A stretch of DNA of 64,000 bases from the IMG/VR virus record IMGVR_UViG_2651869695_000003; one strand, given 5' to 3'. A program made the translations under genes and the position numbers. The notes beneath the pieces were generated by a model, which saw only the letters and a program-made list of their open reading frames with translations, did not search any database and was not told where the DNA came from. Source of the DNA: a virus (Duplodnaviria > Heunggongvirae > Uroviricota > Caudoviricetes). Shown in pieces: positions 39,133-60,460 of this stretch; positions within the stretch are counted from its first letter, which is position 1; each line of letters begins with the position of its first letter.

Positions 39133-40866
39133 TTAAAGCGAGCGGATCCCATAGGACTCAATGTGGTCAGACAGCGTGTCTTCTTTCTCGTACAGCATGG
39201 CTCTGCCAACCGCCATAATCAGCGCAACTGCACCATCGATTTTGTTTTCCGCCTGCTCTTTGACGGGCTTCACCACATCATCGTTACCCGGAATGGTTTT
39301 GCCGACCACGTTGCCGATACACCAGGTCATGATGGGATTGCCATCATGATGAAAGCGCCCCGATTCAATTGCCGCTTCCAGCTCTTTCATCGGATCGGAC
39401 ATGTTGGTGTAGTTCTGAATGATAGTGATGGGGTTCAGGTCTTCATCAGCAAGGTCATGTGACAGCCCGGTCGCCCCGAAGGGGTCGATGGGTGACTCAC
39501 TGACCGGGCTGATTTTGTTCGCCGCTTTGGCCTCCTCGAGGATGTAGCGATAATCCACTTCCGCACCATCGGTAACGGTCAGAACGCCCATTTCCACCCA
39601 TTTCTGAAAGCGTTCGGCTGTCCGTCGATCTTCATTTTTCTCGACGCTGTACACCGTGTCATACGGTACCCAGAAACGCGGGGCCACACTGTAGTAATGC
39701 GTTTTACCGTCAATCTCGCGGGTATAAAGTCGCGCCATGCTGTTCATATCCAGTTTACGCGCCAAGTCAAAGGCCAGAATGCACGGCTGCCCCTCGAACT
39801 GCTCAAGGGTCAGTGATTTATCCTCGCAGCTCTGCCAGCTCACCAGGTTGAAATACGCCGAACGCGCCGACACCCAGATATTGAGGTGTTTTGTTTTAAA
39901 GACGTTTGCCAGACGGGCGTTATTTTTCGCACGCTGTTGCTGACTTAACAAAAATTCGCGATAAACCGACACGCCAATATTTGGATTGGCTTTTTCCAGC
40001 ACCTGCGGGTCGGTCCAGTCGTCACCTTCATCAACGGTATAGATGATCCCGAACAGTTCATCGTTAGGCACCGACCCGTTGAGCATCTCGATAACTTCCC
40101 GCCGCTTGTCGTAGCACGGCCCCTCAATGTTGTACCCGGCAGTAGTAATGGCCCACATCAGTGGCTGACGTCGCGCCCCCATCCCGGTAAGCATCGTGGT
40201 GTAAAGCGCATCGGTGGCGTGCTCGTGATATTCATCCACCACCGCACAGTGGGGTGATGAACCATCACCGGGGTTACCGATCAGCGGTTCAAACCGCGCG
40301 CCATCCTCCGGACGGTTCATGTTTGAGGCGTTAACCTCAATCCCGAACGCTTCCGTCAGCATTGGTGTGCGTTTACACATCAGTCGCGCCGGGCGAAAGA
40401 CTTCCCATGCCTGTTTCTCCGTCGTGGCACCGGAATACACTTCCGCGCCGAACTCGTTATCACAGGCAAAACAATACAGAGCGACACCGGCAGAGATTGC
40501 CGATTTGCCGTTCTTACGGGGGATTTCGGTATACACCTCCCTGAAGCGGCGCAGCCGGGAGCCTTTATTGACCCAGCCAAACGCGCAGCAGATCACAAAG
40601 AGCTGCCACGGCTCCAGCGTGATGGGCATCCTCTTGAATGCCCACTCACCCTTGGTGTGCGGCAACAGCTGAATAAATTTGGCGGCCCGTTCAGCCAGGT
40701 CCTTGTCGAAGCGGTAACGAAACGACTTACTTTTTTCCGCCATCAGGTCATCAAGATGGCGCTGGCAGGCCTGAATCACAAACTGGCAGGCCACAATCTT
40801 TCCGCGCACGACATCCCGGGCATACTGATTGGCAGCATTTACGTTGGGGTAAGATTTCCGGCTCAT
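39133..40866 (-). CDS. Terminase large subunit, right-arm copy
   Basis: Translation identical to 5850..7583. Confidence 0.9.
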
Positions 40867-48353: not shown

Positions 48354-48676
48354 ACTTTCAGGCCCCTCTCATGTAACCAGTGGGCTGCACGCAGCCTGGC
48401 GTTTTCCTCACCGGCAAGCAGTGAGCGGATAATCCCGACCGCCTCGCTGTCGTCGTCCTTCACCGCGGTATGAAGCGTTATCCCCCGTGCCACGCCACGC
48501 TTTATCGTGATGACGCCTTTTTTCTCCAGTGCGCGAAGATGCTCCACCGCTGCATTCACTGAACGGTATCCCAGCATGGTAGCCACCTCCTGATTGGTTG
48601 GTGGGAAGCCACGTTCTTTCTGGTAAGAAATCAGCATATCCAGCACCTGCTGCTGGCATTGAGTTAACGTCGTCAT
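48350..48676 (-). CDS. LexA-like winged-helix DNA-binding protein (no peptidase domain)
   Basis: LTQCQQQVLDMLISYQKERGFPPTNQEVATMLGYRSVNAAVEHLRALEKKGVI resembles LexA N-terminal domain. Confidence 0.5.
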   Translation of the reverse strand: MTTLTQCQQQVLDMLISYQKERGFPPTNQEVATMLGYRSVNAAVEHLRALEKKGVITIKRGVARGITLHTAVKDDDSEAVGIIRSLLAGEENARLRAAHWLHERGLKV

Positions 48677-49170
48677 TAAGCCCCCACGTAATTCCCTGAC
48701 AGATACCACTCTTCACCTGATGCAGCCCGCTTACTGCTTTTCCGTAAACACCGTTCACGACGCGCCAGAAAATTGTTTCGTTCTGGCTGGGAGTGGCTTT
48801 CACGGAATGCCGCCATCCACACCGTTGCAGCACGACGGTATAAGCCCCTGGACTCCAGTTCTTCCGCCTGGCGGGTCAGGCACAAAATCACCCGCGGGTC
48901 GTTAGTGCCGACATAGAAATTGCGCACAGGTCTGGTTTCACGAACTGGTTGTGGTTCCGGATCCTGCGCTCTCTCAGTCAGGCGCGGGAAATGTCTGTGT
49001 GTATCTCCTTCACAACGGTGAGCCACACGCCCACTCTGACGTAACTTGCTTGCTGACTGCAGAACGCGCTGCCGTGAGTAACCTGCAAAAGCATCCGCAA
49101 TGTCTCCGGAAGTACAGCCCGGATGGGCTTCAATGAATTTCTGAACGTCATTCAAAAGACTCATGCTCAC
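48676..49170 (-). CDS. Hypothetical protein (replication/nin region)
   Basis: 164-aa ORF translationally coupled between O-like gene and LexA-like gene. Confidence 0.4.
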   Translation of the reverse strand: MSMSLLNDVQKFIEAHPGCTSGDIADAFAGYSRQRVLQSASKLRQSGRVAHRCEGDTHRHFPRLTERAQDPEPQPVRETRPVRNFYVGTNDPRVILCLTRQAEELESRGLYRRAATVWMAAFRESHSQPERNNFLARRERCLRKSSKRAASGEEWYLSGNYVGA

Positions 49171-50108
49171 CCCCTGAATCCTGCCGGGATCTGGCTGTAG
49201 TCCACATTGTCGTAACTGGCTTTGAAGTACGGGTCTTCGCGTTTTTCTGTGTACGTGCTGACGGACGGCGATAAGCGCAGGGAAAGCTCATCCCATTTTT
49301 CCCGCAGCTTCGACGGGCTGAGCACGTTACGGCACCAGAACGGATCGCGGCTGACGCGGCTGTACATCTCGCAGATTTGTTTGTGAGTACGACCATCCTG
49401 CACACACATCAGGCGAATTTCGTTTGCCCAGGCTGTCCAGTTCGGTTCTTTGGGACGAACCACCTCGCCGTCACATTCGGCAGCCTGCTCGTACAGGGCG
49501 ATGATTTTTTTCCAGAGCCACTGTGCGCAGGTCAAATCATCCTGCGTCCCCCACTGGCGCTTTTTAGGGCTGAATACAACCGCATCAGGATGGCGAGTTA
49601 AAAAATCCTGTTCAGCCGTCTGCGTGTCCGGTTGCGAAGCGTCCGGACGAGAAGGTTTTTTATCTGACGGATCATGTTTTGATTTTACTGACGGATCCCC
49701 GCCAGATTCTGACGGGTGAAAACCCGCTTTTTTGCCAGATTTCGACGCATCAAATTTTGACGGGTCAGATTTTGATGCGTCAGATTTTGACGGGTCAGAA
49801 TCTGACAGTTGAGAAAATGCCGCTGCCTGAAGCTTCGCAACGTTAAGCTGATAAACATTCGACGCATTGCGGTTACCCTGGCGACGCGCCTTACGCGTTA
49901 ACCAGCCTTCTGCTTCCAGCCGTGCGATAGCCGTTCTGACGGTACTCATCCCCGCGCCAATCTGACGGGCAATGGTTTCAATTGATGGCCAGCACACACC
50001 TTCGTCATTACTGAAATCAGCCAGGCGGGCCATAATTGCCACGCTGGATAACTTCATGCCTGATGCAGCGCAACCATCCCATACATAGCCGGTTAATTTA
50101 GTGCTCAT
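49167..50108 (-). CDS. Replication initiation protein (O-like, winged-helix N-terminus) with internal iterons
   Basis: N-terminal HTH-like segment; central Ser/Asp/Lys-rich linker (DPSKSDASKSDPSKFDASKS) encoded by 15-bp tandem repeats; position after cII-like gene. Confidence 0.55.
   Translation of the reverse strand: MSTKLTGYVWDGCAASGMKLSSVAIMARLADFSNDEGVCWPSIETIARQIGAGMSTVRTAIARLEAEGWLTRKARRQGNRNASNVYQLNVAKLQAAAFSQLSDSDPSKSDASKSDPSKFDASKSGKKAGFHPSESGGDPSVKSKHDPSDKKPSRPDASQPDTQTAEQDFLTRHPDAVVFSPKKRQWGTQDDLTCAQWLWKKIIALYEQAAECDGEVVRPKEPNWTAWANEIRLMCVQDGRTHKQICEMYSRVSRDPFWCRNVLSPSKLREKWDELSLRLSPSVSTYTEKREDPYFKASYDNVDYSQIPAGFRG
49690..49805. repeat. Iteron-like direct repeats (~7 copies, 15-bp period), candidate origin
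   Basis: Tandem units of the form AGATTTTGACGGGTC / AGATTTTGATGCGTC inside the O-like gene. Confidence 0.5.
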
Positions 50109-50117
50109 GACCGACCT

Positions 50118-50456
50118 CTATTTCCCTGAATTTACGACGAAACTGTTCGAGCGGACTGAAGCATTCATGCTCATAACCTTCGCGGAGGTAGATAACCCGT
50201 TGTGTTTCCGGCTCCCAACGAATGACTCTGACGGGTACTCCGTAGTGATCTTTGAACCAGCGGTTAACTTGTCGCAAAGGACTGTCTCCTTCTGCCGGTT
50301 GAAATCACCCACAGCCCACTCTGCAAAGCTGTGGGTTACAATTTCCCTGTCACCTGGTACATTCACTGCATAGCAATATTCCACCTTCGCTTTTCCACCC
50401 GGAACAGGAAGCGCAATCAGTTGCGAGCGACGGTAGTGTGTTGTTAAACTGTTCAT
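50118..50456 (-). CDS. Hypothetical protein
   Basis: 112-aa ORF between cII-like and O-like genes; C-terminal half looks less protein-like, possible frameshift. Confidence 0.3.
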
Positions 50457-51022
50457 GCGTTAGTTTCTCCACAACCAGAAGCAATCGACGCCACGACGCC
50501 CGGAGCTGCACACTCGCGGGCGTCATTACTTTCTGAAATGCAAAAAATTTTGTAGACCAGTGCTGCATGCTCCTGCAGCTTCGAAATTGAGAGATACAGC
50601 TCGTCGTTAATTGCTGTCTTCTCATGCGGTTCCACTACACCGTCTTCGATTGCTGAACGAATCTGTTTTGAATAACTGCCGATCTGTTCAATGACTTCCA
50701 GCAGACGCTGGTTAATATCGGCGTTGTCCACATCCTCGACGTCAGGAAGAGACACAAAGACGCCATTTGCAGACTGCGCCACAGCATCAGCAATGAAGTG
50801 AGTGCCACCAGCACGCTGTAAAACCATTGCCCATCCCAGCGGGAAAATCTGATCGCCATCTGCACGAAGGCGGTTGAATAAAGCGTTTTCTGTTACATCG
50901 AGCCAGTCAGCCGCTTCAGCGTAACCACCCGGCAACGCCGCGATAGTTTTTCTGACAGCTTTCACGTACCACTCAGGCTGTTTTTCTATTTTCCAGTGAT
51001 GCTTACCCACAATTAGCCTCAT
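50453..51022 (-). CDS. CII-like regulatory protein
   Basis: 189 aa directly downstream of cro-like gene; family assignment from memory. Confidence 0.4.
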
Positions 51023-51053
51023 CGTTCTGTGGTTAAAAATTGAAAGTGTTCTG

Positions 51054-51254
51054 CTAATCTTTCGGATAGATATCCGGTCTTAAGTCAGATTTCGTAATTG
51101 CACCTGACGTGCATTGCTCAAGTTTTTTAGCCAGCACAAAACTGGCTTTTTTATAGCCATTGAAAACCAGCCGTAAGTAGCCAGGTGTTGAGCCAACTTT
51201 TCCGGCCAACTCGCCCTGCTGTTCTTTGGTTAAAGAGTCCCAATACGCTTTCAT
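51054..51254 (-). CDS. cro: Cro-like HTH repressor
   Basis: 66 aa (MKAYWDSLTKEQQGELAGKVGSTPGYLRLVFNGYKKASF...), divergent from cI across a 90-bp operator region. Confidence 0.65.
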   Translation of the reverse strand: MKAYWDSLTKEQQGELAGKVGSTPGYLRLVFNGYKKASFVLAKKLEQCTSGAITKSDLRPDIYPKD

Positions 51255-51344
51255 ACAATATGTACCTCCGATGTACATATTACATGATTGAAATGAACCT
51301 TCAAGATACTTGTACCTTAACGGTACAAGGGTTTTAATTTCGTT
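51255..51344. promoter_or_regulatory. cI-cro divergent promoter/operator region
   Basis: Palindromes ATGTACAT and CTTGTACC-ttaa-CGGTACAAG with repeated TGTAC half-sites. Confidence 0.5.
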
Positions 51345-52019
51345 ATGAAAACAATCCATGACATCCGGCGGTCTAACGCCAGAAAACTGAGAGATGGTGT
51401 TGGCGGGAATTCTTCCTTTGCCACTATGATTGATCGCGAGCCAACCCAGACCAGCAGGTTTATGGGAGATGGTGCTACTAAAAATATCGGTGACAGCATG
51501 GCACGACACATCGAAAAATGTTTCGACCTGCCTGTCGGATGGCTCGATCAAGAACACCAGACAACGAACATCACAAAAAAACCTGATGTTTCAATCACTA
51601 ATAAACAAATCACATTAGTCCCTGTCATATCATGGGTACAGGCCGGAGCATGGAAAGAAGTTGGATATTCTGAGGTTGATTTGAGCACAGCAGAAACGTA
51701 TCCCTGCCCTGTACCCTGTGGGGAAATGACTTATATCTTGCGGGTGATAGGTGATTCAATGATTGATGAGTACCGCCCGGGAGACATGATTTTTGTCGAT
51801 CCTGAAGTACCTGCCTGCCACGGTGACGACGTTATTGCATTGATGCACGATACAGGTGAAACCACCTTCAAAAGGTTGATAGAAGATGGGACACAGCGTT
51901 ATCTCAAAGCGTTAAACCCAAACTGGCCTGAGCCTTACATTAAGATCAACGGTAATTGCTCTATAATTGGTACAGTGATTTTCTCAGGAAAACCAAGAAG
52001 ATACAAAATCAAAGCCTAA
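51345..52019 (+). CDS. cI: CI-like repressor (HTH + S24 LexA-like peptidase domain)
   Basis: 224 aa; C-terminal GDSM ... KRL Ser/Lys dyad context typical of autocleaving repressors. Confidence 0.8.
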   Translation: MKTIHDIRRSNARKLRDGVGGNSSFATMIDREPTQTSRFMGDGATKNIGDSMARHIEKCFDLPVGWLDQEHQTTNITKKPDVSITNKQITLVPVISWVQAGAWKEVGYSEVDLSTAETYPCPVPCGEMTYILRVIGDSMIDEYRPGDMIFVDPEVPACHGDDVIALMHDTGETTFKRLIEDGTQRYLKALNPNWPEPYIKINGNCSIIGTVIFSGKPRRYKIKA

Positions 52020-56009: not shown

Positions 56010-56216
56010 ATGCTGAACCTCGATTGTGTTCCTATCTCAACTTATTGCAAAGAAACTGGCGAAACTCCTGAAGCAATAAACAAACGTGTACAGCGCGGTG
56101 TTTGGCGTGAAGGTGTTCAGGTTTTAAAGGTTGAAGGCGTTAAGGAGAGGTGGATTGATCTTAGTGAGGTTGCAAAATGGGCCAGACAAAACTGCTCAAA
56201 CTACCGCGCGGCGTAA
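56010..56216 (+). CDS. xis: Excisionase-like protein
   Basis: Small basic protein overlapping int start. Confidence 0.5.
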   Translation: MLNLDCVPISTYCKETGETPEAINKRVQRGVWREGVQVLKVEGVKERWIDLSEVAKWARQNCSNYRAA

Positions 56217-57352
56217 CAATCAGGAAACACCGCCAGGGAGAAACGATCAATATAACTTTCACCTACAAAGGAGTTAGATGTCGTGAGCCACTTTCCAATC
56301 TGGAAGTAACACCAAAGAACATTAAATACGCCGAGCGTACACTCGGCGAAATCCATAATAAGATCGAAAGGGGAACATTCATTTATGCAGAATATTTTCC
56401 CCGTTCTGCTCGTTTGAAAATTTTTGGTAATGCTGCCACTGGCAAAACGGTAAAAATGTACCTGGACGAATATCTTGAAATCTGCGAAACGAGGAAACTA
56501 TCACCATCCACGATTGGTGGTTATAAAAAATGCCGGAGTGCGTTAGCCTCGCTTCACATTTGCCCTGCAAGTGAATTAACACCAGCAACCCTGAAAGCGT
56601 GGATTCAAAGCCAAAAAACGACCTTAAAAACCATTCGCAACCAGTTATCTTTCCTGCGGTCAGCACTTGATGAAGCCGTAACCGATGGGGTACTTCAAAT
56701 TAATCCCGTATCGTTAGTAACTGCTTCGCGCTACCAAAGTGATAAGTCAGAAGCAGAAAGCAGCTACGTGGTTGATCCGCTATCACCAGCAGAAGTTGAT
56801 GCATTACTAGCAGCAGCCGGAAACAAACAATGGGAGAATCTGTTCCGGTTCGCTATACATACAGGTCTGCGTAGTTCTGAATTATGTGCCCTTCGATGGC
56901 GTGATATTGACTTTGTAGGGATGACTGCCCACGTCCAGAGCGCCAGTGTTGTTGGTGTAATCAAAGGTACCAAAACAAAAGCAGGTACTCGAAAAGTTGA
57001 ACTGACAGATGAAGCAATGTCTGCACTAATAAATCAGAAACCGTTCACTTTCATGAAGGACGCGACTGTCTTTGAAGATCCAAAAACCAATAAACCTTGG
57101 GCCAGCGCAGACGCCATAAGAAAGAAGGCATGGGTGCCAACTTTACGTAAAGCCGGAGTCCGTTACCGTAATCCTTATCAAACTAGACATACATTTGCTA
57201 CAAAACACATTAGTCAAGGTGTTAATTTGTTTTGGTTAGCCGCTCAAATGGGGCATAAAGGACCAGAAATGCTATTTAGGCATTACGGCCGTTATCTTAA
57301 AGATTATGATAACAATAGCACACACAATCATTTGATAAATTGTACTAATTAA
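56177..57352 (+). CDS. int: Tyrosine integrase (phage integrase family)
   Basis: 391 aa; C-terminal catalytic region (RHTFAT, HYGRYL); adjacent to att site. Confidence 0.85.
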   Translation: MGQTKLLKLPRGVTIRKHRQGETINITFTYKGVRCREPLSNLEVTPKNIKYAERTLGEIHNKIERGTFIYAEYFPRSARLKIFGNAATGKTVKMYLDEYLEICETRKLSPSTIGGYKKCRSALASLHICPASELTPATLKAWIQSQKTTLKTIRNQLSFLRSALDEAVTDGVLQINPVSLVTASRYQSDKSEAESSYVVDPLSPAEVDALLAAAGNKQWENLFRFAIHTGLRSSELCALRWRDIDFVGMTAHVQSASVVGVIKGTKTKAGTRKVELTDEAMSALINQKPFTFMKDATVFEDPKTNKPWASADAIRKKAWVPTLRKAGVRYRNPYQTRHTFATKHISQGVNLFWLAAQMGHKGPEMLFRHYGRYLKDYDNNSTHNHLINCTN

Positions 57353-57391
57353 ATGATAATCTCTACTTCTGATTGGAAGTAGAGATTTCAC

Positions 57392-58210
57392 ATGAATAAC
57401 ACAGATTTAATAAAAATGTTAGGTTACTCAATTACCACTACCGACTTCATAGCCATAATAAGTGTCATAATTGCATTTTTTGCAATGTACCAAACATGGC
57501 AGCAAAGAATAATTTCAAACAAACCTCAAATCTTACCTAAGAATATAAAATTCACATGGATGCACAGAGATAACTTGAAATTATTTAAGAACATAGAAAT
57601 ATCACCAACCACTTTGAATATAGAGCTTCTCAACATAGGTCTTGGCCCAGCTATAAAAATAAACCACTACTGGTCTGAAGAGTATGAGAAATATATTAAG
57701 ATAAACAAATTCAAAATAGATAATAACAACACACAAAAATCACATGAGATATTTTTGCAAAATGAAGAGTTTTTTACAATCAAAGACAACAATAACTTCT
57801 TGAATGTTGATATTTTTGGTAGAGGTCCGCAAAAACATAATAGCTTTCAAAAAAAAGGAACTTTGATAGAATTTATAACTCCGAATATTAAAGACAAAGA
57901 GAAAACAACCATACCATTTCCCCCATTGGTGCCGGAATTAATTGGTAATTATCTTGTAACCACCTCCATCTCATCGTTTATAGGGCCGGACCTTATCCTT
58001 GAATATAGAGATGTAAACAATAAGAAAAGAAAGAAAATTTTCACAACAGAATTTAAGAGCGTATCTTTTTACGGAAATGGCTTAGATCTAATTTTAGACA
58101 TAGATATTCTTTTCACATCCAAACAGTGTTGGACACAGGTTGTCCTAGAAAGGATACGCAAAAGCTACGCAGATTTTATGGATGAGCATGATTTTAATAA
58201 AAACAGATAG
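57392..58210 (+). CDS. AT-rich hypothetical protein with N-terminal TM helix (moron between int and attR)
   Basis: 272 aa, Asn/Lys/Ile-rich, very low GC. Confidence 0.45.
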   Translation: MNNTDLIKMLGYSITTTDFIAIISVIIAFFAMYQTWQQRIISNKPQILPKNIKFTWMHRDNLKLFKNIEISPTTLNIELLNIGLGPAIKINHYWSEEYEKYIKINKFKIDNNNTQKSHEIFLQNEEFFTIKDNNNFLNVDIFGRGPQKHNSFQKKGTLIEFITPNIKDKEKTTIPFPPLVPELIGNYLVTTSISSFIGPDLILEYRDVNNKKRKKIFTTEFKSVSFYGNGLDLILDIDILFTSKQCWTQVVLERIRKSYADFMDEHDFNKNR

Positions 58211-58223
58211 TTAAAAAAATTCG

Positions 58224-58263
58224 GACTCGGGTTCAACTCCCGCCAGCTCCACCAAAATTCTCC
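58224..58263 (+). other. ssrA: Partial 3' end of ssrA (tmRNA): prophage attachment site core (attR)
   Basis: TCGGACTCGGGTTCAACTCCCGCCAGCTCCACCA matches the E. coli tmRNA 3' end with one mismatch; upstream sequence is AT-rich phage ORF. Confidence 0.7.
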
Positions 58264-58302
58264 ATCGGTGATTACCAGAGTCATCCGATGAAGTCCTAAG
58301 AG

Positions 58303-58335
58303 CCCGCACGGCGCAAGCCCTGCGGGCTTTTTTGT
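58303..58335 (+). terminator. Rho-independent terminator downstream of ssrA 3' fragment
   Basis: GCCCGCA-loop-TGCGGGC followed by TTTTTTG. Confidence 0.6.
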
Positions 58336-58515
58336 GCCTTGAATTTGTCCCGCGAAGTCTGATGCCAACTAATTAAATCCGAACCTTTTAGGCACCTTGT
58401 TAGGCACCTCATAAAGCTTTATTGTTTTTGAGGTGCCTAAAACTATGGAAACCCGGCAATGGCAAGACAAACCAAACCTCTATCCGTTAAAGAAATCGAA
58501 TCTGCTAAACCCAAG

Positions 58516-60460
<1,945 letters not shown>

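Follow-up and report, generated by a model that had tools for sequence, protein, structure and literature searches.

The question raised by this locus is where, and by what means, a lambdoid prophage that encodes an O-like replication initiator but no helicase loader could start its replication. The locus lies in a 64,000-nucleotide stretch of viral DNA (IMG/VR record IMGVR_UViG_2651869695_000003; Caudoviricetes), the whole of which is called the window here, and which carries the early-right operon of a lambdoid prophage on the minus strand. The initiator gene is an open reading frame (ORF) on that strand, with an ATG start and 313 codons before the stop, and its limits had been given exactly (49167-50108) in an earlier, sequence-only reading that proposed an O-like initiator with iteron-like repeats inside its own coding sequence. 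This proposal gained support from homology, from the uniqueness of the repeat motif, from selection at the DNA level and from covariation of the repeats with the N-terminal domain of the protein. As an explanation of the whole locus, it is probable that the gene encodes the initiator of a prophage of the SfII/SfIV/CPS-53 type, that the phage origin is located within this gene, where a disordered linker is encoded, and that the replicative helicase is most likely loaded through the C-terminal tail of the protein. Taken separately, a lambda-style origin inside the initiator gene was considered likely on the sequence evidence, and binding of the iterons by the initiator protein just as likely.

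The initiator was matched over its full length by the PHROG profile phrog_391, 'replication initiation O-like' (E 7.9e-136; residues 1-313 against positions 1-298 of 298). An AlphaFold2 model, built on a 28-sequence alignment, divided the protein into a winged helix (residues 1-98), a disordered stretch (102-162), a helical domain (163-280) and a disordered tail (~280-313). The modelled N-terminal domain consists of a helix-turn-helix plus a beta wing, was found by Foldseek to resemble MarR/ArsR-type winged helices, and was recognized by Pfam HTH_36 (PF13730) at residues 23-70, scoring 42.9 bits against a cut-off of 25. The Pfam scan of the initiator returned HTH_36 and related winged-helix families only, with no match to Phage_rep_O (PF04492), and a sequence search of solved structures gave MarR-type winged helices alone for the N-terminal domain and nothing for the C-terminal domain. 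Similarity to plasmid Rep families was weak, RP-C reaching 17 bits, which is below its cut-off. The C-terminal domain was examined by tblastn with residues 146-313, and residues ~166-277 proved homologous to the C-terminal domain of lambda O (lambda 39196-39495; 39% identity over 112 amino acids, E 2e-19). The same search also matched phi80, phage 21 and Gram-positive 'replisome organizer/DnaD-like' proteins, and the PHROG profiles 'DnaD-like helicase loader' and 'replisome organizer' likewise matched the C-terminal domain. Judged by these profiles, the DNA-binding domain is of another family than that of lambda O, and the protein is O-like in its C-terminal domain and its architecture.

The disordered stretch at residues 102-162 coincides with the DNA repeats and with two boxes that follow them, and lies between the two folded domains, in agreement with the earlier description of a Ser/Asp/Lys-rich linker encoded by the repeats. 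Tandem Repeats Finder reported a period of 15 with 4.3 copies and 81% matches at 49736-49799. Read on the coding strand, the array is made of five head-to-tail 15-mers, CTGTCAGATTCTGAC, CCGTCAAAATCTGAC, GCATCAAAATCTGAC, CCGTCAAAATTTGAT and GCGTCGAAATCTGGC, and the repeat units encode SDPSK SDASK SDPSK FDASK. Beyond a spacer, a sixth unit (CCGTCAGAATCTGGC, R5, 49701-49715) is followed by box 1 at a spacing of 21 bp, with a further 24 bp from box 1 to box 2 (Table 1). The 'about seven tandem 15-bp units' first described at 49690-49805 were therefore real as 15-bp repeats, but their layout is five units in tandem, one more unit and two related boxes. The core motif TCARAWTYTGR was found nine times in the window, every time at 49702-49805, where 0.78 matches were expected and 0 of 100 shuffles reached nine. 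Because four of the core-motif sites match on both strands, the repeat units are dyad-symmetric. Two other candidates were rejected as parts of the element: a terminator-like antisense hairpin at 49713-49726 was apparently not kept as a hairpin in relatives, whose sequences were compared by eye, and the palindrome GTCCGG-N11-CCGGAC at 49626-49648, after box 2, was only partly conserved in them.

Selection on the repeat DNA, as distinct from plain coding, was assessed in relatives taken as one locus per species from 185,579 genomes; a set of 80 near-identical loci from viral contigs was set aside as uninformative for covariation. In 65 relatives, each of another species, the linker codons were biased towards the motif and departed from the usage in the remaining gene, lysine being encoded by AAA in 98% versus 63% of cases, serine by TCA or TCT in 81% versus 27%, and phenylalanine by TTT in 82% versus 31%. 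A synonymous-site test was then made on 48 non-redundant loci, whose N-domain DNA identity averaged 0.70. In the N-terminal domain the commonest synonymous codon had a mean share of 0.52 and 0 of 66 columns stood at 0.9 or above, while from nine codons before box 1 to 11 codons after it most synonymous columns stood at 0.9-1.0 and a few at 0.57-0.81. Examples of frozen columns are GAT in 48/48 loci, TCA in 42/42 and GTA for valine in 47/47, and the codons of the R5 region (offsets -9 to -3) were 81-100% fixed at synonymous sites. The last repeat unit and both boxes fall within the frozen span; in the tandem array, where copy number varies, it is the codon bias that indicates selection on the DNA. 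Amino-acid changes corresponded to single-base changes in the DNA, as in Ser TCA to Leu TTA and Lys AAA to Asn AAT.

The repeat motif also covaried with the DNA-binding domain. Loci with a group A N-terminal domain carried the repeat TCAAAATCTGAC, those with a group B domain (MSSKLHGLVWEGCA...) carried TCAAATATTGA / CCAACGGTTGA, and those with a group C domain carried GTTCAGATTCTGAAC; the three kinds of motif were mutually exclusive, each being restricted to its own group and to the linker. Unrelated N-terminal domains joined to the same C-terminal domain had, at that same place in the gene, arrays of their own (15 bp; 22 bp x 4.8; 23 bp x 5.3; 24 bp x 6.8). Many relatives matched residues 1-168 only, indicating that the N-terminal domain and the repeats are exchanged as one module, apart from the C-terminal domain. 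The repeats thus appear to be selected as DNA and to be matched to a cognate DNA-binding domain. Among near-identical proteins the copy number of the repeat differed in multiples of five amino acids. A like difference in copy number separates lambda from phages that encode Shiga toxin (Stx), with 4 versus 6 iterons, adding 13 amino acids (PMC7466680).

A candidate for the AT-rich unwinding element next to the repeats, for which the sequence-only reading had recommended a search, was present, with the polarity known from lambda. In a nearest-neighbour stability scan with sizes of 20, 30 and 40 bp, no DNA in the gene was less stable than this segment, which ranked at the 95th-97th percentile for the window as a whole. 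It occupies the interval between the two boxes and the DNA around them, directly past the iterons in the direction of transcription. GATC occurs in each box, and the two Dam sites bracket an AT-rich 20-mer. The boxes were present in 71 distinct sequences across the N-domain variants A, B and C and were absent from seven loci with unrelated N-terminal domains. The boxes may have a role in unwinding or in Dam/SeqA control, and a part for the whole AT-rich/GATC segment in unwinding was given about an even chance. A search of Rfam gave only a hairpin-like match far under threshold (30.7 versus 97 bits), and no promoter-like site was found in a scan of 48500-51400. As a separate observation, a dam or other DNA methyltransferase gene stands one or two genes past the initiator in many relatives, among them SfII, E. 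coli D6, an Stx2k phage, Pantoea and Rahnella; no such gene follows the initiator in the window, and the methylase gene is likewise absent from SfIV (PMC3851460).

The arrangement had been described from the outset as that of the lambda origin inside O, and the comparison bears this out in the dyad-symmetric repeats within the gene, the AT-rich segment that comes next and the homologous C-terminal domain. The position of the proposed origin, in the middle of the initiator gene, is shared with lambda O/ori-lambda and also with the Stx phages 933W and P27, gp15 of phi80 and O of phage 21. As in lambda, dyad-symmetric iterons code for the stretch between the domains and are followed by AT-rich DNA in the direction of transcription, and in the early-right operon the gene comes after cro and cII. 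The differences are also plain. The N-terminal domain in the window is HTH_36 rather than Phage_rep_O; the iterons are 15 bp and head-to-tail, whereas those of lambda measure 18-19 bp and are spaced 20-24 bp apart; a pair of conserved GATC boxes brackets an AT-rich part shorter than that of lambda; and the window phage has no P gene, its initiator ending in ..IPAGFRG and that of lambda in ..TDWIYGVDL.

A second comparison is with iteron plasmids. In plasmid Reps such as pSC101 RepA, R6K pi and RK2 TrfA, a winged helix binds direct iterons by an AT-rich region and the host DnaB-DnaC is used, with no loader of the plasmid's own. Plasmid origins, however, are as a rule situated outside rep and depend on DnaA boxes, whereas the putative origin in the window is within the gene and has no DnaA box that could be found, and similarity to Rep families is weak. 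The replisome organizers and DnaD-like proteins of Gram-positive phages resemble the window protein in that their PHROG profiles match its C-terminal domain.

The following mechanism is proposed. Dimers of the N-terminal winged helix would bind the dyad-symmetric 15-bp iterons (49701-49808), and the resulting nucleoprotein complex would destabilise the neighbouring AT-rich stretch (49650-49689), bracketed by the two conserved GATC boxes. Having no P, DnaC or DnaB gene of its own, the phage would then recruit the DnaB-DnaC complex of the host directly, most likely via a tail that copies the C-terminus of the host protein DnaT. The lack of a P/DnaC-like loader after the initiator, noted in the sequence-only reading, was confirmed with Pfam, PHROG and the Prokaryotic Genome Annotation Pipeline (PGAP). 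No PF06992 or lambda-P-like gene was found in the window or in identical prophages, and the PGAP annotation of the E. coli D6 prophage, whose initiator gene is 100% identical, holds no homologue of P, DnaC or DnaB. A PHROG scan of the window, taking in the left arm up to the integrase gene, detected no helicase or loader. One 'DnaC-like' PHROG match at 58582-59316 was discarded, since it is no phage loader but the IstB encoded by an IS21-type element that lies past the integrase gene.

The tail was linked to DnaT by BLASTP, in which the last nine residues of the initiator (..DYSQIPAGFRG), SQIPAGFRG, aligned with SQIPPGFRG of DnaT at 8/9 identical positions, both at the extreme C-terminus. Tails of relatives read VNHISEPDTEIPPGFRG or RERDINAISRPDTSIPPGFRG, with up to 13/17 identities with DnaT (for VNHISEPDTEIPPGFRG), and in DnaT itself I173, P174, G176, F177, R178 and G179 were invariant in 16 orthologues. 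The Pfam DnaT family (PF17948), whose members have an N-terminal domain for oligomerisation and a three-helix C-terminal domain that binds single-stranded DNA, gave no match to the initiator. As the profile comparison aligned the tail alone, the relationship is that of a shared motif and not of domain homology, and the idea that the initiator C-terminal domain is a homologue of the DnaT C-terminal domain was rejected. E. coli DnaT (primosomal protein i) thus has the C-terminal peptide in common with the initiator but no detectable homology at the level of the domain, and it acts with PriA and PriB at abandoned forks, not at an origin.

Tail type was compared with the presence of a loader gene over 78 complete loci. 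Among the 51 loci with a DnaT-like tail (..P..GFRG), a lambda-P-like gene stood downstream in 0 and a DnaC-like gene in 1, while all 8 loci with a lambda-type (TDWIxG) or ..WENTL tail had a lambda-P-like gene downstream and none a DnaC-like gene. Over these 59 loci the association of tail type with a P-like gene gave p = 4.5e-10 in Fisher's exact test. It was also seen within a single type of C-terminal domain, that resembling lambda O, where 14 initiators with DnaT-like tails had no P and 7 with lambda-type or WENTL tails all had one. Five look-ups made after the rule had been formed all fitted it: three loci with lambda or WENTL tails (P0042, P0065 and P0107) were each followed by a PF06992 Phage_lambda_P gene, one with a DnaT-like tail (P0094) had no loader, and another with a DnaT-like tail (P0102) was followed by a DnaC-like AAA+ gene, not P.

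The same peptide was found on otherwise different proteins. On YdaU of the Rac prophage in K-12 the tail is DnaT-like (QVNTVSLPDSAIPPGFRG); the next gene encodes the DnaC paralogue YdaV, and the pair mirrors the host dnaT-dnaC operon. YdaU also resembles the window initiator in its position, after ydaS and ydaT, but differs in having a DUF1376 N-terminal domain, no clear iteron array and a phage-encoded DnaC paralogue next to it, where the window phage has none. The initiator of an Stx2k phage without P has a DnaT-like tail together with a different N-terminal domain, its own 21/24-bp array and a different C-terminal domain. Altogether, a DnaT-type peptide of 9-20 residues was present on at least four unrelated initiator architectures, exclusively where P was lacking and sometimes beside a DnaC paralogue. 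According to reviews and to the 2026 cryo-electron microscopy structures of the preprimosome, DnaT is believed to recruit DnaB-DnaC by a mechanism not yet known, and no DnaT-DnaC interaction is documented (PMC5778457, PMC13377028). A literature search for the peptide string PGFRG returned nothing relevant. Recruitment of the host DnaC-DnaB through the tail, as suggested by these sequence comparisons, was put close to an even chance but short of it.

Other tails were seen in the same set of loci. A group A initiator in a metagenome-assembled genome of an uncultured Serratia (L152) ends in ..NQGGTDDDFI, resembling the acidic tip of SSB (..DDDIPF), and this single example is possibly another host-protein tail copied onto an initiator. 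A fourth class of tail, a ~50-residue extra extension ending ..W(N/A)xIWK(E/Q)..QR.., was recorded in 18 loci, all of which lacked a downstream gene resembling P or DnaC (loci listed under this class: L091, L094-L100, L116, L132, L134, L141-L142, L149 and L153-L160).

Several observations weigh against an origin in the linker DNA or against loading through the tail. Frozen synonymous sites establish selection at the DNA or RNA level without singling out origin function. With 30% GC over 40 bp, the AT-rich segment is modest beside that of lambda, and no DnaA-box or IHF consensus was found near the repeats. Since variants A, B and C have identical boxes, the variable, specificity-determining part of the N-terminal domain is probably not their reader. 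For the tail, phmmer and hhalign aligned just the last 20-34 residues with DnaT (hhalign probability 27%, E 6.6e-4). The end of the gene that encodes the tail adjoins the position of P, so that linkage and shared ancestry could inflate the association between tail and P, and the 59 loci are not phylogenetically independent. Moreover, the L152 locus has a DnaC-like gene downstream and a different tail. Removal of DnaT residues 154-179 has been reported only to halve the affinity for single-stranded DNA (ssDNA; PMC4132743). These residues were described in two structure papers for their effect on ssDNA only, and the partner of the tail could accordingly be PriA, PriB, DnaB, DnaC or ssDNA.

The possibility that the repeats are simple low-complexity coding sequence, raised already in the sequence-only reading, would make them a slippage-prone Ser/Asp/Lys pentapeptide linker, with the origin elsewhere or no self-replication at all. 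They do encode a disordered linker, their number does vary among close relatives in the five-residue steps that slippage would give, and PGAP names the product merely 'helix-turn-helix domain-containing protein'. Such an account is nevertheless barely credible, given that the last unit and the boxes keep their synonymous sites fixed across genera in which the N-domains share ~70% DNA identity, that codons in the array follow the DNA motif and not the usage of the gene, that amino acids change through single bases, that the units are dyad-symmetric on both strands, and that the motif covaries with the DNA-binding domain. A cis element with some other role is easier to entertain, such as an operator in autoregulation or the control of copy number, a target of some other protein from phage or host, or an RNA signal in the early transcript. 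The constancy of the GATC boxes across the three variants makes another reader possible, the frozen sites are silent on which process selects them, and the dyads could fold in RNA, as the sub-threshold Rfam match reflects. This too is improbable, because the array coincides exactly in position with the origins of lambda, the Stx phages and other O-like genes, every type of N-terminal domain has its own array at that position, and the least stable DNA of the gene comes next, while neither an Rfam family at threshold nor a promoter-like site was found. The two readings also overlap in part, in that iteron replicons usually share their sites between autoregulation and initiation.

In a third alternative the helicase is loaded without the tail, through a YfdN-like adaptor, through transcription-dependent opening and then the whole PriA-PriB-DnaT restart pathway of the host, or with P from a co-resident prophage. 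The yfdN-like gene stands at the place of lambda P, its start overlapping the stop codon of the initiator gene, which suggests translational coupling; YfdN-like genes follow many initiators with DnaT-like tails; and E. coli strains often hold several lambdoid prophages, with up to 6 matching places per genome. The 164-residue product had been listed as unknown, with a profile search for loader function proposed, and in this case the search identified it as YfdN of the PerC family (Pfam PerC, PF06069, E 8e-9; phrog_1324 'transcriptional activator', E 1e-78). It appears as a MarR-like winged helix (residues 1-95) joined to a PerC domain (residues 100-151). PerC/Pch proteins activate virulence loci in enteropathogenic and enterohaemorrhagic E. 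coli. When compared with loader families (lambda P, DnaC/IstB-like AAA+), YfdN matched only PerC, ANR and MarR-like profiles in Pfam, PHROGs and NCBIfam, and its relatives were detected in just 19 of the 51 comparable loci with DnaT-like tails, making it a poor candidate for an obligatory loader; on these two grounds YfdN was ruled out in that role. In addition, SfII and SfIV carry the same module and were isolated as phages from Shigella, and loading without the tail leaves unexplained why the tail is common to DnaT and to YdaU, the latter paired with a DnaC paralogue. Such loading was therefore considered unlikely, and recruitment through the DnaT-like tail was retained as the preferred, if tentative, account.

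The same gene is present in the Shigella phages SfII, SfIV and SfV and, as yfdO, in the CPS-53 (KpLE1) prophage of E. coli, at 98-99.7% DNA identity; SfII, SfIV and several Escherichia phages were matched at that level, with Kati also among the matches (98-100%). The window gene is the intact form of K-12 CPS-53 yfdO. The gene order O, yfdN, (dam), lexA-like, rusA is that of the SfII/SfIV-type module, and in the window the yfdN-like gene is followed by genes for a protein with a LexA DNA-binding domain, RusA, a KilA-N protein, DUF968 and a Q-like antiterminator. The SfIV paper speaks of a 'replication module' only and does not discuss iterons, an origin, a missing loader or a DnaT-like tail (PMC3851460), and the paper on phage SfI, whose replication genes are lambda-like, holds nothing on iterons. 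Two E. coli chromosomes (L082, L083) contain copies of the gene matching residues 79-313 only, in which iterons, boxes, C-terminal domain and tail are kept; these are apparently copies like that of K-12 CPS-53. Having lost the DNA-binding domain, they look like a dead replicon that still carries origin DNA. In three Pantoea loci (L084, L085 and L144) a ~440-residue protein follows the initiator and contains the motif ..IIDGHHRYY.., which by eye is ParB/sulfiredoxin-like.

Upstream of the initiator, the 3' end of a DUF4222 gene overlaps the start of the initiator gene (Table 1). The 112-residue protein that the sequence-only reading had placed after the initiator is in fact upstream of it, its ORF (50118-50456, minus strand) overlapping the same-strand ORF of DUF4222 (50098-50277). 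This longer ORF corresponds to phrog_1170 over its full length, and its first 63 residues to phrog_20047; PGAP annotates the DUF4222 gene alone and leaves ~175 bp upstream blank. The two ORFs may be a frameshifted pair, the product of a fused call, or truly overlapping genes. At the other end of the prophage, an integrase gene (56177-57352) is followed by a 272-residue ORF and then by the IS21-type element, which lies on the minus strand and comprises an IstA-like transposase (59317-60381) and the IstB-like ATPase (58582-59316), the whole region spanning 56177-60381. No tRNA gene was found anywhere in the window, and the D6 prophage with the identical initiator gene adjoins tRNA-Arg.

Table 1. 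Positions of the initiator gene, its proposed origin elements and the flanking early-right genes in the window.
Feature	Position	Strand	Basis or remark
Replication initiator gene, YfdO / SfII-SfIV 'O protein' type	49167..50108	minus	ORF; phrog_391; DNA identity to phages
N-terminal winged-helix DNA-binding domain, residues 1-98, presumed iteron reader	49815..50108	minus	HTH_36; AlphaFold2; Foldseek
Five tandem 15-bp iterons R0-R4, coding strand nnGTCAAAATCTGAC, dyad GTCA-N5-TGAC	49734..49808		
Iteron R0	49794-49808		
Iteron R1	49779-49793		
Iteron R2	49764-49778		
Iteron R3	49749-49763		
Iteron R4	49734-49748		
18-bp spacer carrying half-site GGTTTTCAC, then sixth iteron R5	49701..49733		
Box 1, coding strand GATCCGTCAGTAA, with Dam site	49685..49697		
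Box 2, GATCCGTCAGATA, with second Dam site	49661..49673		
AT-rich segment, 30% GC, candidate unwinding element	49650..49689		Nearest-neighbour stability scan
C-terminal helical domain, residues 163-280, homologue of lambda O C-terminal domain	49269..49622	minus	tblastn; AlphaFold2 predicted local distance difference test (pLDDT) 70-90
Disordered C-terminal tail REDPYFKASYDNVDYSQIPAGFRG, last 9 residues matching host DnaT C-terminus	49170..49241	minus	
yfdN-like gene, 164 residues, winged helix + PerC domain	48676..49170	minus	Pfam PerC; phrog_1324
DUF4222 gene, 59 residues, directly upstream of initiator	50098..50277	minus	phrog_1343 full length; PGAP calls in E. coli genomes
CII/CP76-like gene	50453-51022	minus	Early-right operon
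cro-like gene	51054-51263	minus	Early-right operon
cI-like repressor	51345-52019	plus	

An origin within the initiator gene is a feature known from lambda, the Stx phages, phi80 and P22. The layout seen in the window is textbook lambda biology, and by itself it adds a well-supported origin annotation, ordinary in kind and apparently undescribed for the SfII/SfIV O family. In the literature covered, which stopped short of the genome paper on SfV and of the review by Weigel and Seitz, no description was found of the iterons or boxes of this family or of the link between initiator-only replication modules and a DnaT-like tail. The annotation is widely applicable, as the gene was matched, whole or in part, in 3357 of 5426 complete E. 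coli genomes, and it extends to the Shigella serotype-converting phages.

The tail may have wider consequences. It is suggested, as a conjecture that could well prove wrong, that the sequence ..[VI]N..S.PD..IPxGFRG-COOH, common to DnaT, YdaU and the P-less initiators, is a portable docking motif for DnaC or DnaB-DnaC. Lambdoid initiators would then choose their loading route by swapping tails, the lambda-type tail going with a phage P and the DnaT-type tail with host DnaC or a phage DnaC paralogue. If true, this would explain how phages of the SfII/SfIV/CPS-53 type, and a whole class of initiator-only replicons, replicate with the initiator alone. It would also identify the element by which DnaT recruits DnaB-DnaC in replication restart, and would make that question directly testable with peptides and tail deletions.

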